Source: a bacterium
Lineage (GTDB): Bacteria; Patescibacteriota; Patescibacteriia; UBA1558; S5-K13
NCBI GenBank assembly: GCA_029555085.1
Contig: JAKPTO010000026.1
Span: 37,217-101,216 of the forward strand
DNA: 64,000 nucleotides
Reading direction: 5' to 3'
Positions 5,590 to 59,570 of this stretch are shown here, one piece after another. Within the stretch, counting starts at the first letter, position 1. Each line of letters begins with the position of its first letter. Made by a program: the position numbers and the translations under genes. The notes below the pieces were generated by a model that was given only the letters and a program-made list of their open reading frames with translations, had not been told where the DNA came from and made no database searches.

Positions 5590-5678
5590 TAAATTTCCAA
5601 ATAAATACTTATATATAAATTATATAATTTTTTCAATAAAAAAACCACCCTAAACTAAGTAGAGTGATTTTTATAAAA

Positions 5679-6341
5679 TTATTTTTGTGATTCTTCTTTT
5701 GTTTCCTCTGGTTCTTTGGTTTTTTCAGTTGTCTCTGGTGTTTCTGATTTTTCTTCTTCTACTGTCTCTGCCTTAGCTGGTTTCGCTATTACTATTGGTT
5801 GGTCTCCGTCAGTTAAAATTTCAACTCCGGACGGAACTTCTAAATCTGAAACTAAAATCATATCATTATAATTTTCAAGTTTAGATATATCTACTTCAAT
5901 TGATGAAATAATTTGACTTGCGAGACATTCAATTTCAATACGATCCATTGCTTTCACAAGAATCGCTCCTAGTTCTTTTACGGCTTTTGATTCGCCTGAA
6001 AAATTAATTGGGATTTCAACTGTCAATTTATTTTTTGCATCAAATCTATACAAATCAGCATGAATTATTGATCCAGTGATATGATCTTTGGCTATATCAT
6101 GTATAATTACTGGGATTTTTTTGTCTTCAAATTCTAAATTTAAAACCTGTGACTCACCCGTGGTATTAAAAATTTTCATAAACTCAGAATAAGAAACCTG
6201 CAAATTTAAATTTTCATGCTTTGGACCATAAACAACAACAGGTAAATACCCAGACGCTATGAGATTTTTCGCGCTTAAGCCACCAAAATTTTCTCTTTTT
6301 TGCGCTTTTAAGATTAATTCTGTCATTTTTTTAGCTTTCAA
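5679..6341 (-). CDS. rplY: 50S ribosomal protein L25 / general stress protein Ctc
   Basis: bL25 fold sequence (LKAQKRENFGGLSAKNLIASGYLPVVVYG...) with an acidic C-terminal extension typical of the Ctc form. Confidence 0.75.
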   Translation of the reverse strand: MKAKKMTELILKAQKRENFGGLSAKNLIASGYLPVVVYGPKHENLNLQVSYSEFMKIFNTTGESQVLNLEFEDKKIPVIIHDIAKDHITGSIIHADLYRFDAKNKLTVEIPINFSGESKAVKELGAILVKAMDRIEIECLASQIISSIEVDISKLENYNDMILVSDLEVPSGVEILTDGDQPIVIAKPAKAETVEEEKSETPETTEKTKEPEETKEESQK

Positions 6342-21521: not shown

Positions 21522-21912
21522 GGGGATGTATCAATTTGATGCATAAAAAATTTGTTCTTTGGCAAGTCAAGTTTTGCGAAACTTGTAAAAAACGCTAAAT
21601 CATAAATGTCAAATCATTTATAGAAAAAGTTAAAGTTGCATTTAGTAATCCAGCTTTCAACTTTTCAATTGCTTAATCTTTTTTAAAAATTAAGCCATCC
21701 TCTATCTTCATACTCGATGGGGATTTACGAGGGTGTTATATTTTCGAGTTATACTATGGTAATTTCCATGTGCCATAGTGAAAACTTATGGAATATATAA
21801 ATAATATTTTTCTTATTTATAGTTATTTATAGAATTTTAAAAATAAGATAAACTTGTAGATAAAGAATGAATTGTTAGGCAGACAGGGGTTCAAATCCCC
21901 TCATCTCCACCA
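21522..21912 (+). ncRNA. ssrA: tmRNA (ssrA)
   Basis: 5' GGGGATG pairs with 3' CATCTCC-A-CCA to form a tRNA-like acceptor stem. The 3' T-arm GGGGTTCAAATCCCC is canonical. Length about 391 nt, immediately downstream of smpB. Confidence 0.8.
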
Positions 21913-23195: not shown

Positions 23196-23272
23196 GGAGC
23201 GGTAGTTCAGTTGGTTAGAACGCCTGCCTGTCACGCAGGAGGTCGAGGGTTCGAGTCCCTTCCGTTCCGCCA
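23196..23272 (+). tRNA. tRNA-Asp (anticodon GTC), CCA encoded
   Basis: Manual fold: acceptor GGAGCGG/CCGTTCC with one G-U pair, D-arm TAGTTCAGTTGGTTAGAAC, anticodon loop cTGTCAc, T-arm GAGGGTTCGAGTCCCTT, discriminator G, then CCA. Confidence 0.8.
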
Positions 23273-45922: not shown

Positions 45923-46582
45923 CTATTTCCAATTATATATCCTTTCTTGTATCTGGGTTGTTTTGATCGAACCTCCATCGTTCCAACCAACTAAAGAAGT
46001 TACCTGTAGGCCTATAAAATTTGTAGGATCTTCGCATTCTGATTCTGGTGATGTATTAATTATTTCATCTTCCCATTCATCATTATAACAAATCGCATCT
46101 ATATATATTATTCTATAAAAATTAGCATCCGACAATTGATAAGAATCTAATCCCTCCATAGAATCTTTATGAACATATATTTTTTGATTTGGCGATTCTT
46201 CTGGCCAAGCTAAGAACAATTTACATTGTCCAGTCTCAAGACATTTATCCCAAGGTATGCTAATGTATTCTAAAATATATCCATCTTGATCTTCCCTGGG
46301 ATACTTATTATCTAATATAAATGTTCTTGAATCTCCATCAATTGCTAAATCCGGTAATAATCCACTGCTCCACGCTAATCCATCAATCCAATTTGAATCT
46401 CTTATATTTCTAACAACTTCCACTCCTTCTCTGGCTAAGTTCGTGGCTTTAAGCATATTATGATTGAAACGCTCAACCCTAAGATTCGCCACAACTAAAT
46501 TCATAATAGATAAAATACCTACCACTGCTATATAAATAGCTATTACTACCTCCAATATTCCCTGTGCTTTACTTTTTTTCAT
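45923..46582 (-). CDS. Type IV pilin-like / pseudopilin
   Basis: N-terminal AQGILEVVIAIYIAVVGILS hydrophobic helix with a conserved Glu. Confidence 0.5.
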   Translation of the reverse strand: MKKSKAQGILEVVIAIYIAVVGILSIMNLVVANLRVERFNHNMLKATNLAREGVEVVRNIRDSNWIDGLAWSSGLLPDLAIDGDSRTFILDNKYPREDQDGYILEYISIPWDKCLETGQCKLFLAWPEESPNQKIYVHKDSMEGLDSYQLSDANFYRIIYIDAICYNDEWEDEIINTSPESECEDPTNFIGLQVTSLVGWNDGGSIKTTQIQERIYNWK

Positions 46583-46584
46583 AT

Positions 46585-47166
46585 TTAATTATTTAAAAAT
46601 TCAGACCATGTTTTACCAGAACCTGGAGTAATGTTTATTACCCATTTCCCCGGTGCCTTAGTACTGCCTAAAAATATCTGACAAGACAAAACATTTTCAT
46701 CTTTATTTTCATCTATAATAATAGACATTAAACCTTTTGGCATTGAAAAATTAATATCTAATGATTCTAATTCTTTTTCTTCGTATCCAAGTTCTGATTC
46801 ATCTTTAATTTTACACCGTAACTGATCAAAATAAAACTGACTTTCTAAAATATTTTCTGAATAAATTAAATTTTCATTATAAAAACCATAAACACCAATA
46901 TCTGCGTAAATATTATATGAATATGAACCATTTACATCCTTTAAAAAAATTATTCCATAACCATTAATAGGTACTGTATTTTGAATTTTTTGACCTGTTA
47001 GTGAAAGATTTTTTGTAAATCCTATTGAATCTTCTATGTCATAAGCTGTTAAACGAAATTCATTTATTCTTCTTGTATATCCATAATCAAGAATAACAAC
47101 ACTTAAGAGAATTACAAATATACCAATCGCAACTACAACCTCTATTATTGTAAAAGCTTTTTTCAT
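46585..47166 (-). CDS. Type IV pilin-like / pseudopilin
   Basis: MKKAFTIIEVVVAIGIFVILLSV is the prepilin motif. Confidence 0.65.
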   Translation of the reverse strand: MKKAFTIIEVVVAIGIFVILLSVVILDYGYTRRINEFRLTAYDIEDSIGFTKNLSLTGQKIQNTVPINGYGIIFLKDVNGSYSYNIYADIGVYGFYNENLIYSENILESQFYFDQLRCKIKDESELGYEEKELESLDINFSMPKGLMSIIIDENKDENVLSCQIFLGSTKAPGKWVINITPGSGKTWSEFLNN

Positions 47167-47960
47167 ATAATTAATAAATTAATATACCAATTCAATAATT
47201 GCTCTCCGAAAAGAAAAGAAATAAACATTGCAAAAGAAATAAATGGTCCAAGAGGAATTTTTAATTTAGTTTTTTCTTTTTTAGATTTAGATAATAAAAG
47301 AAAAATACCAATTATTGCTCCGGAAAAGTAAGTAATCAATAACGCCACAATTGTAATTTTAAATCCCAAAAGCGCACCCATAAAAACCCCGAGCAATATG
47401 TCTCCACTACCAAGCCATTTTCCTTTTGAAATAACATATTGTATACCAAAAAAAATTACTCCGAGAACAATCCCATAAAAAATATTTAAAATATTATTTT
47501 TCATTATTAAATTAAAAATAATAGATAAAACTATCCCCAAATAAACTATAAAATCCACTATTAAATAGTATTTCAAATCATAAATAAATATAAAAGACAA
47601 AATAAATACAAGTATTAAATAAAATATAAAGCTAATAATTAATTGACCATGAAGCCAAAGTCCAGAAACAAAGAAAAACCAATATCCGAATGAAAATAAA
47701 ATTCCTAGAATTACCTCAACAAAAAAATTCTCAAATTGAATCTTTGATTTACAATATCTACATTTCCCAAGTAAAACAATGTAAGAAAAAACTGGAATTA
47801 AATCTAAAATCCCCAATGTTTTTTTACAATTAAGACAATACGATCTATTAAGTATTGATTTTTCTTCATTTATTCGATAAATCAAGCAATCTAAAAAACT
47901 ACCAAAAACAGCCCCTAAAATAAAAAATAGTATATAGAACATACCATTATTATAGCACAA
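47163..47960 (-). CDS. pilD: Prepilin peptidase (A24 family, PilD-like)
   Basis: N-terminal Cys-tetrad Zn-binding region (CLNCKK...CRYCKSKI), multiple TM helices, and a catalytic Asp context. Confidence 0.75.
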   Translation of the reverse strand: MCYNNGMFYILFFILGAVFGSFLDCLIYRINEEKSILNRSYCLNCKKTLGILDLIPVFSYIVLLGKCRYCKSKIQFENFFVEVILGILFSFGYWFFFVSGLWLHGQLIISFIFYLILVFILSFIFIYDLKYYLIVDFIVYLGIVLSIIFNLIMKNNILNIFYGIVLGVIFFGIQYVISKGKWLGSGDILLGVFMGALLGFKITIVALLITYFSGAIIGIFLLLSKSKKEKTKLKIPLGPFISFAMFISFLFGEQLLNWYINLLII

Positions 47961-47996
47961 AATCTCGGATTATAATATTTATATTTTCATCCAAAA

Positions 47997-48614
47997 TTAC
48001 TTCAAAATTGTACCTGTTTTTATATACCAGATATAAATATCTAACTCTCCCTGACTCATATCCAATTTTTTGCATATTTTATGCATTTTTTTCTCTATTT
48101 CAATATATCTCTTTGGTGTTAATGTTTTATATTCAGCTATTATTCCGTTATCAATCAAACTACTAATAATATGCCTATCTAAAATAGCATAATCAAAAAA
48201 ACCAACATTTCTTAAAAAATGCGACGATTCCTTCATCCCAAGACCTTTTATATTTTTCAAAAGCCACATTCTTTTATCATTTTCTTCTAATAAAATATCT
48301 TTGATGTTTTTATACTTTCTTGCCAAAACAATACGATTCGCGCGTTGAGGCCAAAATCTATGACCTGATTTTTTCAAAAATCTTGCTAATTTTTCTTCAT
48401 TCCAATTTAAAAAACCATTCGGAGTTAATTTTTTTTGAATTTCAATTGACTCTTTTGCTTTCCAATTTGAAGTTAATAAACAATAACAAAGTTCAAAAAA
48501 CCATTCATTGTTTGATTTTTTGTTTAAAATTAAAAAATCTTTTAATCTTCTATCAATTTTATTTTTGATTTTTGATTTTCTTATTTCTTGAATTTTGTTT
48601 ATTAATTTTTTCAT
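47997..48614 (-). CDS. ogg: N-glycosylase/DNA lyase, archaeal-type 8-oxoguanine glycosylase (Ogg2 family, HhH-GPD)
   Basis: The stretch KSNNEWFFELCYCLLTSNW...GHRFWPQRANRIVLARKYKNIKDIL...NIKGLGMKESSHFLRNVGFFDYAILDRHI...YIWYIKTGTILK gives a near-collinear match to the MJ0724-type Ogg. The probable start is the internal Met (MKKLINKIQEI); the ORF-track start at 48686 would overlap nth by 128 bp. Confidence 0.65.
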   Translation of the reverse strand: MKKLINKIQEIRKSKIKNKIDRRLKDFLILNKKSNNEWFFELCYCLLTSNWKAKESIEIQKKLTPNGFLNWNEEKLARFLKKSGHRFWPQRANRIVLARKYKNIKDILLEENDKRMWLLKNIKGLGMKESSHFLRNVGFFDYAILDRHIISSLIDNGIIAEYKTLTPKRYIEIEKKMHKICKKLDMSQGELDIYIWYIKTGTILK

Positions 48615-49269
48615 AATGTAAACAATAATTTTTAATTTTACAAATATTACATTTTGGACCAATTGGCCTACAAATATTTTGACCAAACAATACTAATACA
48701 AAATTTATTTTTTTCCAGTACAACTTATCTAAATTTTTTCTTAAAAACATTTCGGTTTCATACGGAGTCCTTGTGTTTAAATATCCAATTCTATTTAATA
48801 TTCTATGAACATGCGTATCCACACAAATTGCTGGTTTTTTTAAAACTGTAGAAATATATAAATTTGCTGTTTTTCTCCCAATTCCTGGAAGTTTTATAAG
48901 TTCATCGATAGTTTCCGGAATTTTAGAATTGAAATCCTTATTTAAAACAAAACATAATTTTTTTAAATTTTTTGCTTTTGTTTTATAAAAACCAACTGGA
49001 TAAATCAATTTTTGTATTTGTAGATTTGTTAATTTTTGCAAATCTTTACAGTTGCTTACTTTTTCAAATAATCTTAATGATGACTCAAGAGTTGTTTTGT
49101 CTTTTGTTCGTGACGATAAAATTATTGAAATTAAAATCTGAAAATTGTTAAATTTTTTAGAATACAAAAAATCAACAGCAGGAAGTTCAAATTCACTAAC
49201 CTGCTGTGACAATAAATCAAGTATTTTTTCTATTTTTACTTTGATTTCCATAATCCATGAAGATTGCAA
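48559..49269 (-). CDS. nth: Endonuclease III
   Basis: HhH-GPD region (LPGIGRKTANLY...VDTHVHRI) and C-terminal 4Fe-4S cluster C-x6-C-x2-C-x5-C (CRPIGPKCNICKIKNYC). Confidence 0.8.
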   Translation of the reverse strand: MQSSWIMEIKVKIEKILDLLSQQVSEFELPAVDFLYSKKFNNFQILISIILSSRTKDKTTLESSLRLFEKVSNCKDLQKLTNLQIQKLIYPVGFYKTKAKNLKKLCFVLNKDFNSKIPETIDELIKLPGIGRKTANLYISTVLKKPAICVDTHVHRILNRIGYLNTRTPYETEMFLRKNLDKLYWKKINFVLVLFGQNICRPIGPKCNICKIKNYCLHYEKINKQNSRNKKIKNQK

Positions 49270-49637
49270 TATGCTCTAACCGTAACAATATTTGCTTTAG
49301 CGTAGAAGTCTGCTTCTGGTTTATCTCCTGGATTTAAAAATTTCTTCCCAGACTTTCCATCATCAGTATTAATTTCAATCCACTCTATAAAATGAGATTC
49401 TTCCATTGGATGTTCAGTTGATCCAACCTTAACTTTGTAACCAAATTCTGTTTTTTCTATAATTGGAACATGTTTTTCATTACCCTGATCTTGTGATTTT
49501 TCTCCTTCTAATCTCATAGCCGTCCCACAACAAACAAGTGATTCTGCTCCAATGTTTAAAACCTCAATAACATTGCCACAAATATCACATTTATAAATCT
49601 GTTTTTTCTTTGTCATAATATTTAAATTAATAATCAA
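49236..49637 (-). CDS. dfx: Desulfoferrodoxin / superoxide reductase (2Fe-SOR)
   Basis: N-terminal desulforedoxin motif CDICGN...CCG and C-terminal neelaredoxin-like EKHVP...HPMEESHFIEWIE. The probable true start is the internal MTKKKQ (49616). Confidence 0.8.
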   Translation of the reverse strand: MIINLNIMTKKKQIYKCDICGNVIEVLNIGAESLVCCGTAMRLEGEKSQDQGNEKHVPIIEKTEFGYKVKVGSTEHPMEESHFIEWIEINTDDGKSGKKFLNPGDKPEADFYAKANIVTVRAYCNLHGLWKSK

Positions 49638-49692
49638 TTATAAAATTTTAAATACTAAGTAACCAAAATGGAAATTTGATTATTAGTTGTTG

Positions 49693-50262
49693 TTACTTGG
49701 ACATTGTTTCAAAATATGCTTTTGGGTGTTTACATGCTGGACATTCTTCTGGGGCATTTTCTGATTCATGAACATAACCACAATTTCTACAAACCCAATA
49801 AACTTTTTCTGATCTTACAAAAGTAGTATTGTTTTCTAAATGTTCTAAAAATTTCTTATACTTTTCTTCATGATGTCGTTCTGCCTCGGCAATACTCCTA
49901 AGTCTAATTGCAATATCTTTTAAACCCTCGCGTTCTGCTATATCAGCAAATTCTGGATACATTGATGTATGTTCATAATTTTCTCCAGCAATTGCTGCTT
50001 TTAAATTCGCAATTGTATCACCTAAAACAGTAGGACATTCTGAATCAACTTTTATAGCTTCTCCACTATTTTGAGTTAATTCGTTTATAAGTTTCATTAG
50101 AACTTTTGCATGTTCTTTTTCTTGATCTGCTGTTAGTGTAAAGTTAGCTGAAATCTCTTCAAATCCCTCTTTTTTAGCAACAGAAGCATAATAAGTATAT
50201 CTATTTCTAGCTTGTGATTCACCTATAAAAGCTTTTGCTAAATTTTTAATTGTTTCTTGCAT
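49693..50262 (-). CDS. rbr: Rubrerythrin
   Basis: Diiron four-helix region (ExxH motifs: EKEHAKV, ERHHEEKY) and C-terminal rubredoxin-like CxxC...CxxC (CRNCGY...CPACKHP). Confidence 0.8.
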   Translation of the reverse strand: MQETIKNLAKAFIGESQARNRYTYYASVAKKEGFEEISANFTLTADQEKEHAKVLMKLINELTQNSGEAIKVDSECPTVLGDTIANLKAAIAGENYEHTSMYPEFADIAEREGLKDIAIRLRSIAEAERHHEEKYKKFLEHLENNTTFVRSEKVYWVCRNCGYVHESENAPEECPACKHPKAYFETMSK

Positions 50263-50339
50263 AATTTTTTAATTAATTATTAATATTTTAAGTATATCAA
50301 ATTCAAACAGCATTATAAAGCGTTGTTAATAGCGTATAA

Positions 50340-51554
50340 TTATTGATAATATTTATTTCTATTATAGTTAAATTCAAAAGATTTATTAAAATCAGATACT
50401 AATGATGGAATATTTGAAACCATAATTGACTCATCGTTTCTAAAAAATCCCCCAGAACTCCAATTATTTGTTCCAAAAAGAGCTATTTTATCATCAAAAA
50501 TCATTAGATGATGGTGTAAAAAAGAATTTAAATTTTGTTCATTAAATATTTGTTTTAATTCTTTATTTCTATTTTCATCAGTCAAAATTTCTAAATTATC
50601 TAAATGATTTTGCTTTTTCTTTTTTATCATAAAATTAAATACGGAACCATCTACTGAAAAATTATAATCATCTGTTAAAATTTTTACACTAATCTTTTTT
50701 GATGCTAATAATAAATCTTCTGCAATATCTCTATCTGTCATAAGCCAAATCATGGATTTTATGTTGTCCTTTGAATTCTCAATCAGATTCAACATTCTAT
50801 CCTTGATACCAGTATTTATTCTTTGTGGAGTAAACCAAATTTCTAAAAATCCTTCTGGATATTTTATAAGAGCAGCGAATGGATTATATTCTTTTGATAA
50901 TTTATCTCTTCCGCGTAAACCAGAAAATATTCTATCAAATTCCTCTCCATATATTTCAATAATTTCTGGCCTGTCAGTTTCTAAAATAAAACTCGGATCA
51001 TATTTATCTTGAATATAAGTAAAATTATAAGAACTAAAGAGTAATTTCTGGGTCTCCTCGCCTCTATCAATTATTATAAATTTATGATGCATGTATTCTG
51101 ATTTTTGAGTATTAATGTTCCTAGACAAAATATCTTTTCTTGTAATATTATCTCGCTTTTCTGAAAACAATCTATTATTTATATCTCTATGCACATCACT
51201 AAAAACTAATTTTATATTCACTCCTCTGTCTGATGCTTTATAAATTGCATCTCTTATCCTTTCGTCGTTCATAGAATAAATAGCCACTTCAATGGTTTTT
51301 TGTGCAGAATTTATAGAATCAATAACAATTTTTGACAAAATGTTTTGTCCAAATTCATCATTAAAATGTAAACTCCCTGAAAATGGTTCTGTGATTTCTA
51401 TGATTTTCGCAGGCCTAAATTCTACTATTCTTCTCTTCGAAAAAGATGTAAAAAATAAGTATATAAAAATTCCCATTGTAATTAATAAAAGAATTGGAAT
51501 TGCCCAAAAAATAAATGTCTTATGTGATTTTTCTAATTTCATCACCCAGCTCAT
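50340..51554 (-). CDS. Membrane-anchored phospholipase D superfamily protein (cardiolipin-synthase-like), two HKD-type motifs
   Basis: N-terminal TM helix. Motif 1 is HHKFIIIDRGEE...SSYN (HxKxxxxD...GSxN-like). Motif 2 is HHHLMIFDDKIALFGTNN, which is Cls-like but has His where the Lys is expected. Confidence 0.6.
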   Translation of the reverse strand: MSWVMKLEKSHKTFIFWAIPILLLITMGIFIYLFFTSFSKRRIVEFRPAKIIEITEPFSGSLHFNDEFGQNILSKIVIDSINSAQKTIEVAIYSMNDERIRDAIYKASDRGVNIKLVFSDVHRDINNRLFSEKRDNITRKDILSRNINTQKSEYMHHKFIIIDRGEETQKLLFSSYNFTYIQDKYDPSFILETDRPEIIEIYGEEFDRIFSGLRGRDKLSKEYNPFAALIKYPEGFLEIWFTPQRINTGIKDRMLNLIENSKDNIKSMIWLMTDRDIAEDLLLASKKISVKILTDDYNFSVDGSVFNFMIKKKKQNHLDNLEILTDENRNKELKQIFNEQNLNSFLHHHLMIFDDKIALFGTNNWSSGGFFRNDESIMVSNIPSLVSDFNKSFEFNYNRNKYYQ

Positions 51555-53235
51555 ATTTTTGCTGATAAGTTAAATAATTATTATTTTCTTTTGAAAATAC
51601 TATAATAATAGAATCTTCAAGTTTTTCACTTAATATTTCTATTATTTTTATAATATCATTATAATTCAAATCAATCCAAATATTGTCAATAATAATAAGT
51701 TGTTTTTTATTAACTATGCAATGGAGCGCTTGAAGAGCAAAGCATGAAACATTATTATTAAAAGCCAACACACAAGAAGAATTAACATTATTTATAGAAG
51801 ATATTTTTGATGCAATAAATTGATTTTCAGATATTACCTTGATCACATTTTCAATTTCAGAAGAATTAATTTGTTCTTTATCTTTCCCTAAAATAAACTC
51901 CATCAAACTTTTTTCTGAAAATATTTTAGGATCGAAAAAATATGCGCCACAGAATAATTTTTGCCATATTGGATAATCATATCTTTTATTGTCTATTTTC
52001 ACCTTCATTGCCTTGGGATTATAAATACGCATTCCTGCAAAAATTTTAGCCAAACTTGTTTTTCCTGAAAAATTCTCTCCAAAAAATAAAATTCTTTCTG
52101 ATTTTTTAAAATGAAAATCTAGATTTCTGAAATATTTACCATCTTTAAATAATTTTGTTTTTTTTGCGTGAAACAATATTTCATTATGAATTTTTAAAGT
52201 ATTTTTTCTACGCAAAACTGCTCCTTTTTGCAATACTGTTAAAAACAAACCCAATCTTGCTGGAAAAAAATATAAACCAACTCTTAGCGCTTGATTAAGT
52301 GTTCTTGGAAAATAGAACATTAAAAATAAAAATAAAAATCTATTATCTCTACCAAGTAAATTTATAAAAGAAAAAAACTCATTTGTAAAAAAATTGCTTA
52401 AAATTACAATTATCAAAACTATCACAAATACAATTTTTGCGCTTATTCCAATCCAAAGATTTCTTCTAATGCGAAAAAAAGAATCTATATTAACAAGACG
52501 ATCAAACTTTTGTAGCACACTATCTTCATTATTAAAATTTTTATTAAAATATTTTTCTGATAAGCTAATATCGATATGTTTTATTATTTGTGAATAAAAA
52601 GTGACTTCTTGCGAAATATATTTTTTTGCAACATAATAAGCTATTATTCCTATAAGAATAGAAAGTGCCACGAAAAAAACGAAAACAATAAATAAATTTA
52701 ATCCTATTAAATATGCAATGAGCATTGCCACAGAAAAATATATGAACCATCTAATTATTCCAAAAAAAACAATTGATACACCCATTGAAACAAGCGATAA
52801 TTGATAAGAAATTTTTGCTATTAACCTACCCTGCCTTTCGTTGTTCATTGTTTCAACGGGTCTATCAATAAATGATTTAAATATTCTGCGCCTAATATCA
52901 TTTGCAAATAATACCACAATAGTTTTTTCTTGTTTTATAGAAAAAAATGAACTTATGATAAACAACAATATAAAAATAGCAAAAAATTGCCAAAAAAATG
53001 GGTCTAAAATACTATTTAGCTGAGATAATTTATTTCTACTAAATACAATAAGAAACGCTTCTATTACACAGGAAACAAAAATTAAAAGAACAAGACGCAA
53101 AATATAAAATTTATATTTTTTAAAAAAATCTCGTAAATACCCGTAATGTAAAAACGATAATTTTATATCTTTGTATTTATTCCTTGTTTTTCTAATTTCT
53201 TTTATTAATCTAATTTGTTCTTTTATTTCTTTCAT
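51520..53235 (-). CDS. ABC-exporter-like protein (6-TM domain plus degenerate nucleotide-binding domain)
   Basis: TMD followed by Walker A GENFSGKTS. No recognisable LSGGQ signature. Walker B is LIIIDN (Asp-Asn, not Asp-Glu). The H-loop His is not evident. Overlaps the RT gene by 26 nt and the PLD-like gene by 35 nt. Confidence 0.55.
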   Translation of the reverse strand: MKEIKEQIRLIKEIRKTRNKYKDIKLSFLHYGYLRDFFKKYKFYILRLVLLIFVSCVIEAFLIVFSRNKLSQLNSILDPFFWQFFAIFILLFIISSFFSIKQEKTIVVLFANDIRRRIFKSFIDRPVETMNNERQGRLIAKISYQLSLVSMGVSIVFFGIIRWFIYFSVAMLIAYLIGLNLFIVFVFFVALSILIGIIAYYVAKKYISQEVTFYSQIIKHIDISLSEKYFNKNFNNEDSVLQKFDRLVNIDSFFRIRRNLWIGISAKIVFVIVLIIVILSNFFTNEFFSFINLLGRDNRFLFLFLMFYFPRTLNQALRVGLYFFPARLGLFLTVLQKGAVLRRKNTLKIHNEILFHAKKTKLFKDGKYFRNLDFHFKKSERILFFGENFSGKTSLAKIFAGMRIYNPKAMKVKIDNKRYDYPIWQKLFCGAYFFDPKIFSEKSLMEFILGKDKEQINSSEIENVIKVISENQFIASKISSINNVNSSCVLAFNNNVSCFALQALHCIVNKKQLIIIDNIWIDLNYNDIIKIIEILSEKLEDSIIIVFSKENNNYLTYQQKYELGDEIRKIT

Positions 53236-54427
53236 AATGAAAGTCTAAATAAAAATTATATAATGATTTTATTTTTAAATATTCTATCTCTTTTCTTAAC
53301 AACCTTCTGTTGCGTGGTGAATATTTACCAAATATAAAATCTGTTAAAATACGGAAAAAATCTTCTGATAATTTTTTTATTTGTTCTGAGTTATTGATTT
53401 GTGGTTTATCTTTTATAATTTTTTGAAATTGGTAGTTAAAATTTTTTTCTGGATGTCCCATAATCCTTCTCAGTAAATACTTTTTTTTACTTAAATTATA
53501 ATTTTTATATTTTAAAATACTTTTCCAACCAGCAATAATACGCTTAATATATGATTTTTCTAAACTAATAATTCCTGAATTAAAGCAGTAGCCTAAAAAA
53601 GAAAAATTTTCTTTTGCATCACCAATAAATAATTTGCTATTATTTATTGTTAAATTTCTAATATTCAAATCTTTGATAATTTCTAATTTTAATTTATTTA
53701 GCTTGTCTATGTTATTATCAAAAATACCTATATCATCTCCTATTCTTATATAAAATGAACATTGTTTTTGATATTTATGATCAAGGTCTGTTAAATATAA
53801 ATTATTAAAAAGTGCTATTAGTGGAACACCCTGGACAAGACCTATATCAGGTGCTTCTATCTTACCATTTTTATATATTTTATTAAAAATAAATAATTTT
53901 AATAAATCTAATATTTTTCTATCTTCAAAAATGTTTTCCAGTTGTGAGTATAAAACATTCTTATCAATCAAGTCAGAATAGTTTTCCAAATCTAACACTA
54001 ATGCTTTGTCTGTAGAAAAATTTTTCCTATATCTATGGCAAAAATTTTTTGCTGCAAAATATGGTGGCTTGCCCGGCCTATATGAAAACAATCTTTTTGA
54101 AAAAACTTTTTCAAATTCTGGTAATAAAACTCTATAAATTGCCTGTGCTTTTATACGATCTTTTATATTATAAATAAAAATATCCCTGAATTTCTCGGGA
54201 TTATTTTTTTTAGGAATTGAAACAATAAGTGCTGGCTCAATTTCCCTATTTTCAACTAATTCTTTTTGACAAATATCTATAAGCTCCTTTGAATTTAAAT
54301 CTCTGTCTTGTATTGAAATATTATCCAAACCGTGATATCTAAAACTTTTACTATCTATAGAAAATTTTTCCACTATATCTAAATAAGCAGATCGAATATT
54401 ATCATAAGATACAATTTTATTAAACAT
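53210..54427 (-). CDS. Free-standing reverse transcriptase (group-II-intron-like / unclassified bacterial RT) with atypical 'IGDD' catalytic motif
   Basis: Motif 1 SIPKKNNPEKFRDIF. Motif 2 RIKAQAIYRVLLPEF. Motif A LVLDLENYSDLID. Motif B GLVQGVPLIALFNNLYLTDLD. Motif C FYIRIGDDIGIF. Motif 7 FSFLGYCF. Thumb/X-like IIAGWKSILKYKNY. Confidence 0.7.
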   Translation of the reverse strand: MFNKIVSYDNIRSAYLDIVEKFSIDSKSFRYHGLDNISIQDRDLNSKELIDICQKELVENREIEPALIVSIPKKNNPEKFRDIFIYNIKDRIKAQAIYRVLLPEFEKVFSKRLFSYRPGKPPYFAAKNFCHRYRKNFSTDKALVLDLENYSDLIDKNVLYSQLENIFEDRKILDLLKLFIFNKIYKNGKIEAPDIGLVQGVPLIALFNNLYLTDLDHKYQKQCSFYIRIGDDIGIFDNNIDKLNKLKLEIIKDLNIRNLTINNSKLFIGDAKENFSFLGYCFNSGIISLEKSYIKRIIAGWKSILKYKNYNLSKKKYLLRRIMGHPEKNFNYQFQKIIKDKPQINNSEQIKKLSEDFFRILTDFIFGKYSPRNRRLLRKEIEYLKIKSLYNFYLDFHYERNKRTN

Positions 54428-54694
54428 ATTTTTAAAAATCGTCCTCAGGATATATAATAAAAATACTATATATTAATAAATCTAATGAAGACCCCCGTCC
54501 ACAAACTGGTTACAACCGTTTCCATTTTAATTAATTCGATATTAACGAATATAAAAAATTAAAACTAAAACGATTATTAATATCTCCTAAAATAGGAGTT
54601 TTGAGGATGATTTTTAAAAGTACATAATATATTATAGCATGTCAATAAAGCGTATGTAAAGAATAAATATATAATTTTGTGATATAATTAATCT

Positions 54695-56758
54695 ATGAAT
54701 CTAGATACAACACTTGATAAAATCTACGGAATAGGTCCAACAATCTATAAAAAATTACAAAAAATCGGATTAAATACAATATCTGATGCTATTTTTTATT
54801 ATCCATTTAGATATGAAGATTTTTCCCATTTAAAACAAATAAATGAGCTTGTAAATGAAGAATCTGCCACTATAAAAGGAAAAATCATACTTTTAAACAA
54901 TAAGAGATCTCCTAGAAAAAAAATGAATATCACTGAAATGCTTTTAGGAGATGATTCCGGACAAATTCAGATAATTTGGTTTAATCAACCATATATTAAA
55001 AATATATTACAAATTGGAGATGAGATATTTGTTTCAGGTGTTGTAAAAAAATCACTTTTGGGATTATCACTTATAAATCCAAATTATGAAAAAACTAATA
55101 GAGACACATCACACACTGCAAGAATTATTCCTATATATCCATCAACAGAGCATTTATCACAGAAACAACTTAGATACATAATAAAACAATCCTTGTCTTG
55201 TATAAATGAATTACATGAAAGGTTACCAAGTCAAATTATTAAAAAAGAAAATTTAATAGAAATAAAAGAGGCAATAAAACAAATTCACTTTCCAGATAAT
55301 TATAAAAAATTAGATCTTGCAAAAAAAAGATTATCATTTGATGAAATATTTTTATTATCATGTTTATCAAAATTTATTAAAAAACAAAATATTGAATTAA
55401 GCGCTCCTCAAATTAATTTCAAGGAAAAACAGATAAAAGATTTAGTAAAAAAAATTCCATTTAAATTAACAGAAGATCAAAGAAAGGCAACCTGGCAAAT
55501 TCTAAAAGATATTAGCCACAAAATTCCAATGAATAGACTTCTTGAAGGCGATGTAGGAAGTGGAAAGACAATTGTTTCTTTTATCTGCGCTTACAATGTA
55601 ATCTTGAACAAATATCAAGCAATTTTAATGTCTCCTACTCAGATTTTAACAAAACAACACTTTGAAAATGCTGTAAAATTTTTCAAGGACTATGATATTA
55701 ATATTTTACTTTTTACAAACTCTGACAGATTATTATTTAATGGAAAAAAACAATTAGCACAAAAATTAACAAAAAAAGAAATTAATAAGTTTGTCAAAAA
55801 ATCTGATTTTATAATAGGAACTCATTCTTTAATTCAGCAAAATGTAGAATTCAAAAATATTGGGCTCATAATAATTGACGAGCAACACAGATTCGGAGTT
55901 AAGCAGCGTCAAGAATTAACAAAAAAATCAGATATTAGTCCACACTTTTTATCAATGACTGCAACTCCAATTCCAAGATCTCTAGCGCTTACAATTTATG
56001 GAGATTTAGATATTTCAAAAATTTTACAAAAACCAGCAAACAGAAAAAAAATTATTACAAAATTTGTATATTCTCGCAACAGAACAAAAGCTTATGAATT
56101 TATTTATAACCAGATCCAAAACGGCAGACAAGTTTTTGTTGTGTGTCCACTTATAAATGAATCGGATAAATTAGGAGTAAAATCCGTAATGAGTGAATAT
56201 GAAAAATTAAGCAACGACATTTTTCCAAATTTAAAAATAGAATATTTACATGGAAAAATGAAAGAAACAGAAAAGCAAAAAATTCTAAAAAGTTTTTCTG
56301 ACAATGAAACAAAAATTTTAGTATCAACTTCTGTTATTGAGGTTGGAATTGATTTTCCAAATGTAACAATAATGATAATTGAAGGTGCTGATAGATTTGG
56401 ATTGGCATCACTCCATCAATTTCGAGGTCGTGTTGGTCGCGGAGAACATCAATCATTTTGCTTTTTATTTTCTGAATCAAACTCAGAAAAATCCCGTAAA
56501 CGTTTAGAAATATTAACAAAAACAGATAATGGATTTGAACTCGCAGAATATGATTTAAAATTTCGTGGAAGTGGAGATTTGTATGGAATAAAACAATCAG
56601 GATTTATGAATGGAGTGAAAATTGCAGATTTATCAGATTTAGAATTAATCAAAAAATGCAATATTTGGGCTCAATATATTTTTGAAAAAGGTCTTGAAAA
56701 ATTCCCTCAAATAAAAAAAGAGATAGAATTACTATCTTCTGATATTCACTTGGAATAA
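54695..56758 (+). CDS. recG: ATP-dependent DNA helicase RecG
   Basis: N-terminal wedge/OB domain. Helicase motif I GDVGSGKT, motif II IIDEQHRFG, motif VI QFRGRVGRG, and a TRG region. Length 687 aa. Confidence 0.85.
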   Translation: MNLDTTLDKIYGIGPTIYKKLQKIGLNTISDAIFYYPFRYEDFSHLKQINELVNEESATIKGKIILLNNKRSPRKKMNITEMLLGDDSGQIQIIWFNQPYIKNILQIGDEIFVSGVVKKSLLGLSLINPNYEKTNRDTSHTARIIPIYPSTEHLSQKQLRYIIKQSLSCINELHERLPSQIIKKENLIEIKEAIKQIHFPDNYKKLDLAKKRLSFDEIFLLSCLSKFIKKQNIELSAPQINFKEKQIKDLVKKIPFKLTEDQRKATWQILKDISHKIPMNRLLEGDVGSGKTIVSFICAYNVILNKYQAILMSPTQILTKQHFENAVKFFKDYDINILLFTNSDRLLFNGKKQLAQKLTKKEINKFVKKSDFIIGTHSLIQQNVEFKNIGLIIIDEQHRFGVKQRQELTKKSDISPHFLSMTATPIPRSLALTIYGDLDISKILQKPANRKKIITKFVYSRNRTKAYEFIYNQIQNGRQVFVVCPLINESDKLGVKSVMSEYEKLSNDIFPNLKIEYLHGKMKETEKQKILKSFSDNETKILVSTSVIEVGIDFPNVTIMIIEGADRFGLASLHQFRGRVGRGEHQSFCFLFSESNSEKSRKRLEILTKTDNGFELAEYDLKFRGSGDLYGIKQSGFMNGVKIADLSDLELIKKCNIWAQYIFEKGLEKFPQIKKEIELLSSDIHLE

Positions 56759-56793
56759 ATTAAGAATATAAAATAAGCTAAACAATTCAAAAC

Positions 56794-58131
56794 TTAAATT
56801 AAAAACTTTTTAAGTTCTTTTATATTTTTGATACAATTCAAATTAATTCCTTTTACATCAACTGCTTTTTCAAAACTTGGAATAATTATATTTTTAAATC
56901 CTAAATTCACTGCTTCTTTTATTCTCTCTTTTGTTTTTGGTATTTGTCTAATTTCTCCATTGAGTCCTACTTCACCAAAAAATACTGAATTTTCCATAAT
57001 TTTTTTATTTTCATATGATGAATAAATTGCCACCGCAACCGCTAAATCAAGCGCGCGGTCCGAAACTTTGAAGCCACCAGTTAAATTAATATAAACATCA
57101 TATAAATTTAATTTTAAATCTAATTTTGATTGAAGTACTGCTATAAGTAATTCTAATCTTTTCTGATCATAACCAGATACGGTTCTTTTTGGATAACCAA
57201 AATTTGTTTTTGATACAAGTGCTTGAAGTTCTAACATTAAAACCTGATTTCCTTCTATAATAGAAGTAATTGCCGTGCCTGAACTTTCTGGATTAATTGA
57301 TGACAAATAAATTTTTGATGGATTTATCACTTCTTTAAATCCTGATTTTGTCATCTCTAAAATTACCGACTCATCAGTTGCTCCAAATCTATTTTTAACA
57401 GATTTCAAAATTCTAAATCTATGCAATCTATCACCTTCAAGACTCAGTACGCAATCAACTAAATGTTCCATTGTTTTAGGTCCCGCTAAATCACCTGATT
57501 TATTTACATGACTTATGATGAGAGTTGCAATATTAAATTTTCTTGCAATTTCCATAATTTTTACAGTACAAGCCCTTACTTGCGCGACTCCACCTGGATC
57601 GCTTTCAATCTCACTCGTGTAAAGTGTTTGAATTGAATCTATAATTAAAAAATCTGGTTTGATTTTTAATATTCCAGCTAGAATTATTTCTATATTATTT
57701 TCTGCCAAAAACTTTACTACTTTACTATCAACTTCCAATCTATCAAAACGAGATTTTACTGAACTTGCACTCTCTTCTCCTGAAACATATAAAGTATTTA
57801 AACTCTTGTTTATAATTTGAGAAATAATTGTAGATTTTCCAATCCCCGGCTCACCACCAAGTAAAACCAAAGAAGAAGGAACTAATCCTCCTCCGACTAC
57901 TTTATCAAAATAAGTTAATCCTGTTTTTATTTTTTTAACTTGTTCATTTTTTATTTTTGACAAATCTATGAAATCAACTTTTAAATCTTTTAAATTTTCT
58001 GTTTTGTCTTTTCTTTCGTCTTCGATAAATGTTTCTTTTTCTAATGTTCCCCAAGCACCACACTCAATACACTTTCCAGCCCATTTCGGAAATTGTGCTC
58101 CACATTTTGAACATGAATATATTGTTTTCAT
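56794..58131 (-). CDS. radA: DNA repair protein RadA/Sms
   Basis: N-terminal C4 zinc finger (CSKCGAQFPKWAGKCIECGAWGT), Walker A GGEPGIGKST, KNRFG motif, and a Lon-like C-terminal domain. Confidence 0.9.
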   Translation of the reverse strand: MKTIYSCSKCGAQFPKWAGKCIECGAWGTLEKETFIEDERKDKTENLKDLKVDFIDLSKIKNEQVKKIKTGLTYFDKVVGGGLVPSSLVLLGGEPGIGKSTIISQIINKSLNTLYVSGEESASSVKSRFDRLEVDSKVVKFLAENNIEIILAGILKIKPDFLIIDSIQTLYTSEIESDPGGVAQVRACTVKIMEIARKFNIATLIISHVNKSGDLAGPKTMEHLVDCVLSLEGDRLHRFRILKSVKNRFGATDESVILEMTKSGFKEVINPSKIYLSSINPESSGTAITSIIEGNQVLMLELQALVSKTNFGYPKRTVSGYDQKRLELLIAVLQSKLDLKLNLYDVYINLTGGFKVSDRALDLAVAVAIYSSYENKKIMENSVFFGEVGLNGEIRQIPKTKERIKEAVNLGFKNIIIPSFEKAVDVKGINLNCIKNIKELKKFLI

Positions 58132-58157
58132 TTAATTATATTAGTTTTATATTTATA

Positions 58158-59570
58158 TTATCTACCGATTCCCTTTCTTGCTATATTCTCAAATCCTAAT
58201 TCTTTGCATTTATTATAACGAGCTAATTTTAAATTACCAGTAGAAATAGCCCACTGACTCGTTGTGCCTCCAGCATATCTTCTAAAACAAAGTTCCAAGT
58301 TACCATCTTTACAATACTGATGTTTCCATCCTAAAACAAAAGCTTCTAAATTAGAATCAATAGTTAATAATGAATCAAAACTAAAACACTTATTTTGATA
58401 TATAAAACCATTATTATTATTACATAAAATATCTTGTTTAGAATGGTAAGTAATTTGACCCAAACCCAATCCAAATGTATAACCTTTTTTATTTATATAG
58501 TTTTTCCAATTAGAAATAGAGACCCCTGGAATATTTTTATCATAAACATACTTAGAGCAATTAGGATTATTACACAACTCTCTTTTATTGCTATTAATTT
58601 TTCCTGCCAACCAATCCTTGCAACAAGAAGGATAAAGATTACATATATGTGCCCTGCGAGCAATAATATCACAAGCCGTGTCTCTAGTAACAGCCGAGTC
58701 ATTGCCAAATGCTCTTGGGTCTCCTCCTGATTCTTGATGAATTACAGCATAATAAATACACTCATCTATATTGTTCCACTTAGCAGACTTTTGAATACCA
58801 ACAATTACTTCCTCAGAAAAAATATGACTATCACCAACAGATTTTATATTAGACCCAGATCCAATATAAGAACCACTACTAGCTAATTCATATCTATCAA
58901 CTTCAATAGGTATAATCTTCTCCACCTTTATTGGTACTATATTCAACAAGGCTGGATTTATTGTTTGGAGTATCAAAACAGAAGAAACGCATAAAACAAA
59001 CCCTATTAAAGCATTTTGTAGTCTTGATTTAGCTTCCCCTATTTTACTCTGATTTCCTCCTGCTAATACCCACTGAAAACCAGCCAATATTATTGCTAAA
59101 ACAGCCACGATTCCTGATAAATATATTAAATATCTAAAAAGTACTACTAAAAAATCTCCAATCAAAGCACCGCTTACCTCTACTTCACTTCTAAAACCTG
59201 GTATTCCGACTTCTGGAGTAAATGATATAGATTTTGGTTCCCCAGGAGTTTCATCTACGCCTTCATTTGAATTATTTTGACAATCAGAAGCCCATTGTTT
59301 AATAGCCTCCTGTTTATAGTGATTACGAAATTCAATATCATGCACAACTTCAGCTGGAAATCCAGCTGCCGTATTCTGCAACTCCCTATCCATCCAAGTC
59401 GTATACAAACCCTGATAATCAACGCTAGATTTATTTAAATCAGTGGCCGGACAATAACTCGGCCTTAAGTATTTTAAATTGGGATCATCCGGTAACTGTG
59501 CCTCTACGCCTCTAAAAAAAAACAGAAACGCTACACTAAAAATAAATAAATATCTCCTTATCTTATTCAT
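58158..59570 (-). CDS. Secreted/membrane protein: TrbC/VirB2-like pilin-type hydrophobic hairpin fused to a lytic transglycosylase (SLT/VirB1-like) domain
   Basis: Signal peptide. Two long hydrophobic helices (ALIGDFLVVLFRYLIYLSGIVAVLAIILAGFQWVLAGG and ALIGFVLCVSSVLILQTINP). SLT motifs VIHQESGGDPRAFG (catalytic Glu-Ser) and GLGLGQIT. Cys-rich. Confidence 0.5.
   Translation of the reverse strand: MNKIRRYLFIFSVAFLFFFRGVEAQLPDDPNLKYLRPSYCPATDLNKSSVDYQGLYTTWMDRELQNTAAGFPAEVVHDIEFRNHYKQEAIKQWASDCQNNSNEGVDETPGEPKSISFTPEVGIPGFRSEVEVSGALIGDFLVVLFRYLIYLSGIVAVLAIILAGFQWVLAGGNQSKIGEAKSRLQNALIGFVLCVSSVLILQTINPALLNIVPIKVEKIIPIEVDRYELASSGSYIGSGSNIKSVGDSHIFSEEVIVGIQKSAKWNNIDECIYYAVIHQESGGDPRAFGNDSAVTRDTACDIIARRAHICNLYPSCCKDWLAGKINSNKRELCNNPNCSKYVYDKNIPGVSISNWKNYINKKGYTFGLGLGQITYHSKQDILCNNNNGFIYQNKCFSFDSLLTIDSNLEAFVLGWKHQYCKDGNLELCFRRYAGGTTSQWAISTGNLKLARYNKCKELGFENIARKGIGR

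Follow-up and report, generated by a model that had tools for sequence, protein, structure and literature searches.

Domesticated bacterial reverse transcriptases (RTs) that are paired with an RNA, namely those of retrons and of the DRT2, DRT9, DRT10 and UG27 systems (DRT standing for defence-associated RT), have in each case disclosed a previously unknown mode of DNA synthesis, several of them going on to become tools. For every characterised domesticated bacterial RT that is encoded beside a conserved structured RNA, that RNA acts as template or scaffold (PMC12632851; PMC9226505). DRT10, for instance, combines a UG17 RT (formerly G2L3) with an upstream non-coding RNA (ncRNA) and a SLATT membrane protein, and primes on a C-terminal Ser/Tyr (PMC12632851). 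Its relative DRT9 pairs a UG28 RT with an ncRNA. Here, we describe a module of related logic from a 64,000-nt stretch of DNA (hereafter the window; positions 37,217 to 101,216 of the forward strand of contig JAKPTO010000026.1, GenBank assembly GCA_029555085.1, G+C about 27%) belonging to a patescibacterium of the GTDB lineage S5-K13, in which a predicted promoter, a pseudoknotted ncRNA of about 190 nt, an RT, a protein resembling ATP-binding cassette (ABC) exporters and a phospholipase D (PLD)-like protein make up one compact transcription unit. The module is confined to Patescibacteria and is new, its RT forming a clade with [IVL]GDD in motif C, its RNA being pseudoknotted, and its pair of a probably hydrolysis-dead ABC-exporter homologue and a probably outward-facing PLD never having been described with an RT. 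It may work as an RT that is guided by the ncRNA and acts through a pair of membrane effectors, a reading that we weigh below against several others. In window coordinates, its parts are as follows.

54631-54660, minus strand: predicted sigma-70-like promoter by consensus match (TTTACA, 18-nt spacer, TG-extended TATAAT)
54428-54694: 267-bp gap between the RT start and the divergent RecG gene
54428-54620, minus strand: ncRNA of about 190 nt with helices P1, P2, P3, a variable P4, a conserved single strand, P5 and a pseudoknot
53210-54427, minus strand: RT, 405 aa, compact and group-II-like, motif C R-I-G-D-D
51520-53235, minus strand: ABC-exporter-like membrane protein, 571 aa, overlapping the RT stop by 26 nt
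50340-51554, minus strand: predicted membrane-anchored two-domain PLD-superfamily phosphodiesterase, 404 aa, overlapping the ABC-like gene by 35 nt

A check of the open reading frames (ORFs) of the window confirmed the three minus-strand genes at these positions, and the coordinates, both overlaps and the 267-bp gap are all as an initial annotation of the locus had claimed. The 267 bp are not empty: they hold the promoter-like site and the conserved pseudoknotted RNA, a component that the annotation had missed, having only suggested that an ncRNA be looked for there. The promoter-like site is the top score of a consensus scan of the 6-kb region (11 of 12 matches, with the TG) and would set the start of transcription close to the 5' end of the closing stem of the RNA.

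The module shares with DRT9 and DRT10 the logic of a compact RT with an adjacent multi-stem-loop RNA, and with DRT10 also the presence of a membrane partner. As in DRT10, its RT has its origin among group-II-like enzymes; the C-terminal Ser/Tyr primer of that system has a possible counterpart in S388 and Y390 near the C-terminus of the module RT, and the DRT10 template, just 3' of a stem-loop, lies where the module RNA has a conserved single strand. The two nevertheless differ in most particulars. Scores of the module RT in the UG17/UG26 range, 86-107 bits, are far under family level, its own profile giving it at least 234 bits; in place of SLATT stand a homologue of ABC exporters and a PLD; the RNA differs by its closing stem and pseudoknot, matches no known model and is not enriched in A-B-A' repeats; and the hosts are Patescibacteria, in which the module lies outside defence islands. 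The combination was not found in PADLOC, NCBIfam, Rfam or the searchable literature, a body that leaves most subscription-journal papers outside its scope, and to that extent the earlier description of it as an undescribed combination holds.

That the genes belong together is clear from their distribution. Loci were gathered by exact-protein look-ups and by a scan of species-representative genomes (66 loci from the scan), and linkage was assessed by tblastn of the three window proteins against the 72 loci gathered by then. The order RT, ABC-like gene, PLD gene, on one strand, was kept in 72 of 72, the PLD gene being absent only from L002, L034 and L050, each of which is cut by a contig end. 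In related loci the genes overlap and their order is kept, though RT identity drops to 34%, and every PLD gene in the loci examined was accompanied by both the RT and the ABC-like gene. The flanks are unlike between loci, with NrdD and radical SAM, RNase III and a PilB-like ATPase, or, in the window, RecG and rubrerythrin. RT, ABC-like gene and PLD gene are an obligately linked unit, their linkage far exceeding chance, and the loss of linkage among homologues that the initial annotation had named as grounds for chance adjacency is not what we found. Judged from sequence, the RNA and the three proteins share a regime of purifying selection, in which the polymerase looks active and the RNA co-evolves.

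The family is small. In a collection of 5.8 billion proteins, 186 relatives of the RT were found at E <= 1e-5, of which the best 120 are about 400 aa long with the exception of one 274-aa fragment, and an exhaustive profile search of 1.84 billion representatives yielded roughly 45-50 clusters at 50% identity. Family members score 234-560 bits to their own profile; there follow a few odd longer or truncated proteins, and generic RTs appear from about 157 bits down. The closest protein relatives come from metagenome-assembled genomes (MAGs) of Patescibacteria labelled Falkowbacteria, Magasanikbacteria or 'Patescibacteria group'. Many source MAGs (among L007-L067) are titled 'uncultured Gammaproteobacteria bacterium' and single ones Omnitrophota or Flavobacteriaceae; their content and relatives are Patescibacteria-like, and these labels are probably placeholders or wrong. 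Some genomes carry two or three divergent copies of the module: HGW-Falkowbacteria-1, for example, has two, with RT identities to that of the window of 60% and 48%, and a MAG bearing the label 'Candidatus Saccharibacteria' has three.

The RT, recognised by Pfam as RVT_1 (E = 3e-13), appears to be catalytically intact. Among 30 diverse family members, Asp146 of motif A and Gly230-Asp231-Asp232 of motif C are invariant, motif B is QGxP, and motif C reads R-[IVL]-G-D-D throughout (FYIRIGDD in the window RT), the residue before the Gly always being Ile, Val or Leu. In RTs this residue is normally Tyr; an aliphatic residue is also found there in telomerase RT, and G-D-D is the pattern of RNA-dependent RNA polymerases. 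Since the motif A Asp and the GDD are invariant, the enzyme seems to be under selection for catalysis. Of the RT features proposed earlier, FYIRIGDD and the Q-G of motif B are confirmed, and the maturase-like thumb lacks profile support: Pfam gave no match to a GIIM/maturase domain in the RT, and the TIGR04416 and PDB profiles cover only about residues 30-330. The C-terminal 115 or so residues are nonetheless conserved in the family and include an invariant S388-x-Y390 some 15 residues from the end, which by analogy offers a lead, and only that, to a protein primer.

In a profile search of the PDB, the best matches of the RT were GsI-IIC (1e-31) and other group II RTs (1e-28), then Cas6-RT-Cas1 (3e-26). 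Chain 9ioa, which we take to be DRT9 (9e-13), lies farther off than the group II, Cas1, UG26 and UG17 RTs, as do the RTs of DRT2, G2L4 and retrons. Among PADLOC profiles, a generic RT profile matched the window RT at 7e-39, followed by UG26 (107 bits, 2e-31), Cas1_IIIb (2e-29), UG17 (86 bits, 4e-25), UG4 (68 bits), UG27 (61 bits) and Drt9 (56 bits, 9e-16), and no family-level match was found to any DRT or UG group (DRT1-10, UG1-39 as in PADLOC v2), against at least 234 bits for the family's own profile. UG38, a small UG group specific to CPR (candidate phyla radiation) bacteria and without described ABC or PLD partners (PMC9226505), was absent from the PADLOC matches, the presence of a UG38 model in PADLOC being unconfirmed. 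The first outgroups of the family, at about 145-157 bits, are tandem RT-RT proteins, RT-TPR-AEP(-MuGam) TOTE fusions and RT-Cas1. The nearest of these outgroup proteins, P0349, P0351 and P0363 (834-858 aa), have two tandem RT domains, each with a weak GIIM match. By these comparisons, the RT appears to be a discrete, Patescibacteria-only clade nearest the group II, RT-Cas1 and TOTE RTs, UG38 being compared by description only. Relative to the CRISPR and TOTE RT-AEP enzymes, its nearest outgroups, the module RT is a stand-alone protein with no fused Cas1 or AEP and with an RNA of its own. It fits the broad G2L category, that is, group-II-like RTs without intron RNA, taken as a descriptive category and not as a clade assignment. 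Like the module RT, G2L4 is a cellular enzyme that stands alone and whose motif C is altered, and its structures 9d4s and 9d5x match the module RT at 7e-9 over residues 195-306 (palm and thumb). Membership of G2L4 was rejected on the weakness of this match and on motif C, which is YIDD in G2L4 and [IVL]GDD in 30 of 30 module RTs; to our knowledge, G2L4 has no dedicated RNA or membrane partners.

The affinity to group II intron RTs, the best solved relatives (GsI-IIC at 1e-31), raises the question of whether the RT is a decayed mobile group II intron or a diversity-generating retroelement (DGR), with its neighbours there by chance or as passengers. A DGR-like layout is also seen in a distant clade of the family, where a tail-fibre-like giant gene stands directly upstream of the RNA and RT. 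Both versions are effectively refuted by the linkage and the RNA data, in agreement with the initial annotation, which had set the RT apart from mobile intron and DGR enzymes. Rfam intron domains had no match at E <= 5 in 49500-55500 and none at the gathering threshold in the window, and the module is without intron RNA domains as it is without a GIIM match; the RT stop overlaps the next gene, leaving no place downstream for domains V/VI; upstream there are only about 190 nt of structured RNA unrelated to an intron; and TIGR04416, though matched at 4e-36 over model positions 18-273 of 353, gave 124.9 bits (125 against a cut-off of 300). A template/variable repeat was found by sensitive blastn in 0 of 57 loci, the only repeats being tandem RNA copies and pilin paralogues, and neither a repeat finder nor k-mer matching of the RNA revealed one in the window. 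Motif B is QG, the three-gene module has no Avd gene, and the linkage is obligate across the family.

The RNA upstream of the RT is the fourth component of the module. The window's upstream region of about 190 nt folds with a minimum free energy of -54.3 kcal/mol, against -32.2 kcal/mol for shuffled sequences (z = -5.5), the upstream regions of other loci have the same conserved blocks, and of the 21 pairs in an RNAalifold consensus of 24 aligned sequences, 15 have changed in a compensatory way. With four helices in the model and the pseudoknot left out, a covariance search at E < 0.01 recovers the RNA from 43 of 68 sources, each time directly 5' of the RT, in addition to weaker matches, and has a single match in the window (54428-54615, 126.5 bits). 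When 37 sequences are aligned to the model, 90.1% of cells are paired, against 39-46% when the partners are slid by 1-3 columns, and both sides have changed in 32 of 36 pairs. The same architecture is seen in the distant RT clade, where a plain MAFFT alignment of 16 upstream regions, not fitted to the model, gave 95% paired against 30-49% for slid controls and compensatory changes in 36 of 43 pairs; the structure was read off one aligned sequence, which inflates the percentage paired and not the double changes. P1, P2, P5, the pseudoknot and three sub-helices of P3 are all borne out by this alignment. Rfam holds no matching family for the RNA, none appearing even at E <= 5 in 49500-55500. In the window, the elements of the RNA, in 5' to 3' order, are the following.

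54602-54619, minus strand: P1 5' arm, UUUUAAAAAUCAUCCUCA; pairs with 54430-54447; 11 of 12 modelled pairs compensatory
54598-54584, minus strand: P2 hairpin
54577-54583, minus strand: pseudoknot 5' strand, AUAUUAA; pairs with the P3 apical loop
54514-54575, minus strand: P3 long hairpin; apical stem UUCG/CGAA (54546-54549 / 54535-54538)
54539-54545, minus strand: P3 apical loop, UUAAUAU, 7 nt, the pseudoknot 3' strand
about 54513-54490, minus strand: P4 hairpin, variable, mostly GC-rich
54474-54489, minus strand: conserved single strand, UUCAUUAGAUUUAUUA, family consensus CUCAUUGGAUUUAAU, directly 3' of P4
54450-54473, minus strand: P5 hairpin; 9 of 10 pairs compensatory, 93% paired
54430-54447, minus strand: P1 3' arm, UGAGGACGAUUUUUAAAA; purine-rich, ending 7-9 nt before the RT start codon in nearly all loci

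The helix between the upstream strand and the P3 loop, although unmodelled, has 95.6% of its cells paired in the 37 sequences (6 of its 7 pairs compensatory) and 100% in the distant clade (5 of 6 compensatory), and takes at least eight distinct complementary sequence pairs across the family, for example AUGCCG/CGGCAU in loci that include Magasanikbacteria-labelled ones; it is because of this pairing outside the model and these compensatory variants that we call it a pseudoknot. The apical stem of P3 is 97% paired (4 of 4 pairs compensatory), and support for P3a and P3b, lower down the hairpin, comes from the distant clade (5 of 7 and 6 of 6 pairs compensatory). Next to P4, the conserved single strand has near-invariant columns, and its CUCAUUG core is kept in the distant clade too, which makes it a candidate template or protein-contact site; the UCAUUGGAUUUAAU strand is one candidate example of a part of the RNA that the RT could copy. 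Repeats of the DRT10-style A-B-A' type were tried here and rejected, their frequency showing no enrichment over shuffles (78% against 76%, and 35% against 26% for repeats of at least 4 nt), and the strand has no long U-run. The single strand also matches the RT ORF over 14 nt (81% over 32 nt, 53881-53912); other loci keep neither the position nor the score of this match, which was therefore set aside as chance in AT-rich DNA.

The layout of a stem-closed structured RNA followed by an RT and then by effector genes, which the module has in common with retrons together with the long terminal stem, invites the reading that the closing stem is a1/a2, the RNA msr-msd and the ABC-like and PLD proteins the effectors, and JGI labels homologues 'retron-type RT'. 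Retron effectors include ABC/SMC-type ATPases and membrane proteins; the ABC-like protein of the module is a membrane exporter and not of the soluble OLD/SMC type. We consider a retron very improbable. The retron profiles are weak (RT_IX 8e-6, RT_II-A 3e-5, against 7e-39 to 2e-31 for generic RT and UG26), as is Ec86 in the PDB search (4e-6 against 1e-31 for group II RTs). VTG and NAxxH are motifs typical of retron RTs, and neither is visible in the alignment. On the RNA side, a conserved AAAAC comes after the 5' arm and P2 after that, with no conserved branching G, and the pseudoknotted multi-hairpin fold is unlike msr-msd.

Several observations argue that the RNA is tied to the RT as a discrete partner. 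It is known only with the RT module, on the same strand and in the 5' untranslated region (UTR), adjoining the RT save in L008. When 241 million metagenome records were scanned with a pattern for the RNA alone, 22 matches came back, of which three are true RNAs (137-152 bits by the model) and lie, all three, directly 5' of RT-ABC(-PLD); the other 19, without covariance-model signal, are chance. In five loci a tandem pair of diverged RNAs precedes a single RT, the copies differing by compensatory changes in P1.

Tandem RNA copies: L014, 5524-6001
Tandem RNA copies: L019, 5625-6000
Tandem RNA copies: L035, 5608-5998
Tandem RNA copies: L042, about 903-1523
Tandem RNA copies: L072, about 5375-5990

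These pairs have a parallel in the ncRNA arrays that occur in UG27 systems (doi 10.64898/2026.09.22.753630). In L008, the RNA (3810-3984) is separated from an intact RT at 6001 by two pilin-like genes (2 kb), a layout that looks like the outcome of pilin gene duplication around the RNA. The L008 pilin-like genes (within 3810-6001) carry an N-terminal methylation motif, and a third, near-identical paralogue stands just upstream of the RNA. In L051, L053 (5975-5996) and L055, which belong to the distant clade, a terminator-like GC-rich hairpin with a U-run lies between the P1 3' arm and the RT start; it is absent from the window's clade. It is the tandem copies, the separation in L008 and these hairpins that argue for a discrete partner.

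Some of the same features can be read in another way, with the upstream RNA as merely a cis-acting leader, either a riboswitch or an RT-binding autoregulatory element, and the RT copying some other template; domain IVa of group II introns is a precedent for RT-binding autoregulation. Without exception the RNA lies in the 5' UTR and on the same strand as the genes, its purine-rich P1 3' arm ends 7-9 nt before the AUG, a terminator-like hairpin follows it directly in some loci, and tandem copies are also known among some riboswitches. A P1-closed multi-helix junction with a loop-strand pseudoknot is, moreover, an architecture typical of aptamers; the search for an A-B-A' template signature found none; and in L008 a longer operon, of pilins and then the RT, follows the RNA. 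We nevertheless regard a leader as unlikely. Riboswitch classes normally control varied genes, and this RNA is not found upstream of other genes; the RNAs of paralogous modules differ in the sequence of P1 and pseudoknot; the terminator of L053 does not overlap P1, so that no obvious switch is present there; the RT of L008 is intact despite the loss of its adjacent leader; and the characterised domesticated RTs with an adjacent conserved structured RNA use it as template or scaffold.

The middle gene of the module encodes a protein that is firmly placed by its predicted structure as a homologue of type IV exporters, with the half-transporter fold of a transmembrane domain joined to a nucleotide-binding domain (NBD). 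It consists of an N-terminal Lys/Arg-rich helix, six transmembrane helices with coupling helices, and a degenerate NBD. The Pfam matches, ABC_membrane at 31 bits and ABC_tran at 25.8 bits, are each barely over the cut-off; the family profile matches PCAT1 (2e-12), MsbA, TM288 and PglK, and an AlphaFold2 (AF2) model with a predicted local distance difference test (pLDDT) score of 82 gave full-length Foldseek matches to PglK, PCAT1, MsbA, TmrAB and TM287/288 at a TM-score of about 0.6. The full-length fold, six transmembrane helices and NBD are thus shared with MsbA, PglK, PCAT1 and TM287/288, whereas the catalytic Glu, LSGGQ signature and H-loop His that those exporters have are missing from essentially all members of this family. 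All of 31 members keep the Walker A Lys (K392) and Walker B Asp (D517), and nearly all an A-loop-like Tyr368; where the catalytic Glu would stand there is almost always Asn (IIIDN), the H-loop His gives way to Ser or Ala, and the LSGGQ signature was not found. Going by these residues, the NBD can probably bind nucleotide and not hydrolyse ATP: with Glu, signature and H-loop His lost, the canonical hydrolysis cycle should be unable to run, and ATP-driven transport is unlikely. The earlier suggestion of a pseudo-ABC protein therefore extends to the family as a whole.

The third gene encodes a protein with a Lys/Arg-rich N-terminal tail, a single transmembrane helix and a catalytic part of two domains, for which Pfam reports two copies of PLDc_2 (E = 3.8e-31). 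Motif 1, H156-x-K158-x4-D163, is invariant, and motif 2 is invariantly H347-x-H349-x4-D354, with His replacing Lys. In the AF2 model (pLDDT 93.5), the fold is that of the two-domain PLD superfamily, the second HKD motif being a variant, and Foldseek matched a bacterial PLD (7e0m, 1e-20), PLD3/PLD4 (about 1e-18), vaccinia F13, PLD1/2 and PssA at a TM-score of about 0.63 and a sequence identity of 11-14%. The fold alone would not tell a nucleic-acid from a lipid substrate, 7e0m, PLD1/2 and PssA scoring nearly as well. By sequence, models of NucT type (3e-16, each half matching) and DrmC type (1e-14) are the nearest; motif 2 is H-x-K-x4-D in PLD3/4, NucT/Nuc and DrmC, against H-x-H-x4-D here. The initial annotation had allowed that the protein might be a housekeeping cardiolipin synthase, a candidate that fails on its profile match (E = 0.022, with 13.5 bits against a cut-off of 787 bits for the NCBIfam cardiolipin synthase) and on its constant company of the RT and ABC-like genes. 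One sub-family of the PLD (P0278, P0285, P0291, P0297 and P0301; locus L074, 7001-8476) has a further C-terminal domain of some 90 residues without a Pfam match; it still occurs in the RT-ABC-PLD arrangement, and the idea of an ABC and PLD pair without an RT was rejected, since these long-PLD variants too have the RT and ABC-like gene upstream.

Two indicators bear on the topology of the PLD protein. The mean number of Lys and Arg is 5.8 on the N-terminal side of the transmembrane helix, against 2.1 in the 15 residues past it, and Cys makes up 0.14% of the PLD ectodomain, against 0.47% of the RT and 0.99% of the NBD, which are cytoplasmic. Given the positive-inside rule and the depletion of Cys from exported proteins of monoderm bacteria, the catalytic domain most likely faces outwards, as in PLD3/PLD4. 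With these membrane-anchored 5' exonucleases, the protein shares a short cytoplasmic tail, a single transmembrane helix and a two-HKD domain on the far side.

Taken with the known systems, these parts are best read as an ncRNA-guided RT with a membrane effector pair and a conflict or defence role, a tentative reading by analogy to which we give somewhat less than an even chance. The steps are drawn by analogy with DRT9, DRT10, DRT2, UG27 and retrons. Briefly, the RT would bind the RNA whose gene directly precedes its own, with a co-varying version for each paralogue, and would copy part of that RNA into complementary DNA (cDNA), the single strand beside P4 being the candidate template and priming perhaps occurring from a protein hydroxyl (with S388/Y390 as a lead only). 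The resulting ribonucleoprotein or cDNA could be read by the cytoplasmic NBD-like domain or by the Lys/Arg-rich tails of the membrane pair. A dimer of the ABC-like protein would then act as a transmembrane transducer or gate, not as a pump, controlling the PLD anchored beside it on the outer face, and the PLD would attack membrane phospholipid or nucleic acid at the cell surface in abortive infection or exclusion. A gate is favoured over a pump because the NBD appears unable to power transport and the PLD is probably outside, and the precedent is control of the FtsEX type. FtsEX, itself an ABC protein, transports no substrate and serves to regulate a hydrolase outside the cytoplasm; it differs from the ABC-like protein in ABC fold type and in being an active ATPase. 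A conflict or defence role is the most economical because of the logic of RT, ncRNA and effector, the diversification of paralogues and the conflict affinities of the nearest RTs, which are domesticated conflict-system enzymes (RT-Cas1, RT-AEP of TOTE, and the UG26 and UG17 profiles); PLD-type proteins also recur in defence systems, as the DrmC match at 1e-14 recalls.

The surroundings of the module, and some features of its parts, weigh against this conflict or defence reading. Recurrent defence genes were absent among 464 neighbouring ORFs clustered from 62 loci, the flanks being housekeeping or cell-surface genes. Genes of DNA repair, oxidative stress and pili surround the module in the window. 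On one side (54695-59570) stand the divergent RecG, RadA and a protein resembling pilins of type IV secretion systems, and on the other (45923-50262) rubrerythrin, desulfoferrodoxin (SOR), EndoIII, Ogg, prepilin peptidase and pseudopilins. Synteny is kept across species-level genomes, and the RNA and RT sub-clades track taxonomy; for both reasons inheritance looks old and mostly vertical with ancient duplication, unlike that of a mobile defence island. Phage carriage was considered and rejected: a single IMG/VR contig holds an RT relative (L073, IMGVR_UViG_3300001866_000229, with an RNA-model match of 12.9 bits just 5' of the RT), its 'viral' signal is a giant tail-fibre-like protein that is also found beside chromosomal copies, and it is probably a misclassified chromosomal fragment. 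An outward-facing PLD would be an odd suicide effector, and a recognisable template signature was not found in the RNA, A-B-A' repeats not being enriched and no DRT9-like poly-U loop being recognised. To these must be added the leader-like traits of the RNA given above, namely its constant place in the 5' UTR, the purine-rich arm before the AUG, the terminator-like hairpins and the tandem copies. The defence system proposed initially is thus not (yet) supported, with no recurrent defence genes, vertical-looking inheritance, no sign of phage carriage and a PLD predicted to face outwards. A defence role is no more than plausible, given a context that looks housekeeping and an inheritance that looks vertical.

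Much of this evidence suits a different reading, that of a lineage-specific envelope function outside defence, which we hold to be a real if minority possibility. In one form, the RT and RNA would make a nucleic-acid product that passes to the exporter-like protein and is then worked on by the PLD at the surface; in another, the ABC-like protein and PLD would scavenge or remodel host lipids or nucleic acids for an episymbiont, with the RT and RNA as an integral cofactor. The vertical-looking inheritance and conserved synteny, the housekeeping and cell-surface flanks with the giant tail-fibre-like and small membrane-anchored proteins of the distant clade, and the absence of the module from phage contigs all favour it, as do the exporter fold of the middle protein and a PLD that is predicted to face outwards, has PLD3/4 architecture and finds its best NCBIfam matches in NucT nuclease models. 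An NBD without Glu, signature and H-loop His, however, makes ATP-driven transport unlikely. Two or three divergent modules with their own RNA variants in genomes well under 1 Mb resemble diversifying conflict systems; a family as small as roughly 45-50 clusters is not a core function of the Patescibacteria; and no known bacterial housekeeping process needs an RT.

A further reading, which we rate as quite improbable, takes the RT and RNA as a telomerase- or DRT10-like machine whose DNA product would have no use within the cell and would be passed to the ABC-like protein and presented to, or processed by, the outward PLD. It rests on the core of the RNA, with its closing helix, pseudoknot and single strand beside a boundary stem-loop; if true, RT-driven nucleic-acid export or surface display in episymbiotic Patescibacteria would be without precedent.

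Flanking genes vary within the window's clade. The two genomes closest to the window keep the rubrerythrin and SOR neighbours, with identities to the window of 71-73% for the RT, 66% for the ABC-like protein, 60-62% for the PLD, 87-88% for rubrerythrin and 78-82% for SOR. In the distant clade (L042-L072), synteny is conserved: upstream lies a giant protein of 1200-1876 aa with tail-fibre-like NVGIGTTxPxxKLDV repeats, about 80 nt past the PLD follows a membrane-anchored protein of some 196 aa with two 'AIxNxDYxTW' repeats, and then come one or two cupredoxin-like proteins of about 200 aa. These neighbours could be extra components or lineage synteny.

Distant-clade synteny example: L054, 59-5689
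Distant-clade synteny example: L055, 10166-10804
Distant-clade synteny example: L071, 2627-3331
Also: L073, 1502-5719

An association with pilins or type IV pili was considered and dropped, pilin-like genes within 6 kb in 11 of 62 loci being about what is expected from pilin abundance by a rough, uncomputed estimate. The window holds no CRISPR-like arrays, and there are no cas genes among the recurrent neighbours. EndoIII and Ogg, as their ORFs are listed, share 128 nt (48559-48686), which probably reflects over-long start-codon choices. Elsewhere in the window there are further features. Two giant minus-strand ORFs have no Pfam match, one at 14813-20356 (1847 aa, G+C 0.34-0.38 against about 0.27, with a 114-nt tandem repeat at 14852-15117) and one at 33635-38758 (1707 aa, with a 207-nt tandem repeat at 37506-37906). 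A tmRNA (91 bits, 21522-21912, plus strand) and a tRNA gene (23196-23269, plus strand) are the sole Rfam matches at gathering level.

With a 405-aa RT and an RNA of about 190 nt, the whole module comes to about 4.1 kb with the RNA included, and its compactness suits heterologous expression. It is among very few RT systems other than DGRs in the Patescibacteria (CPR), and the retention of two or three copies points to strong selection, as these genomes are minimal. Should the defence reading be wrong, the module would represent reverse transcription coupled to the cell envelope, which would be even more unusual.

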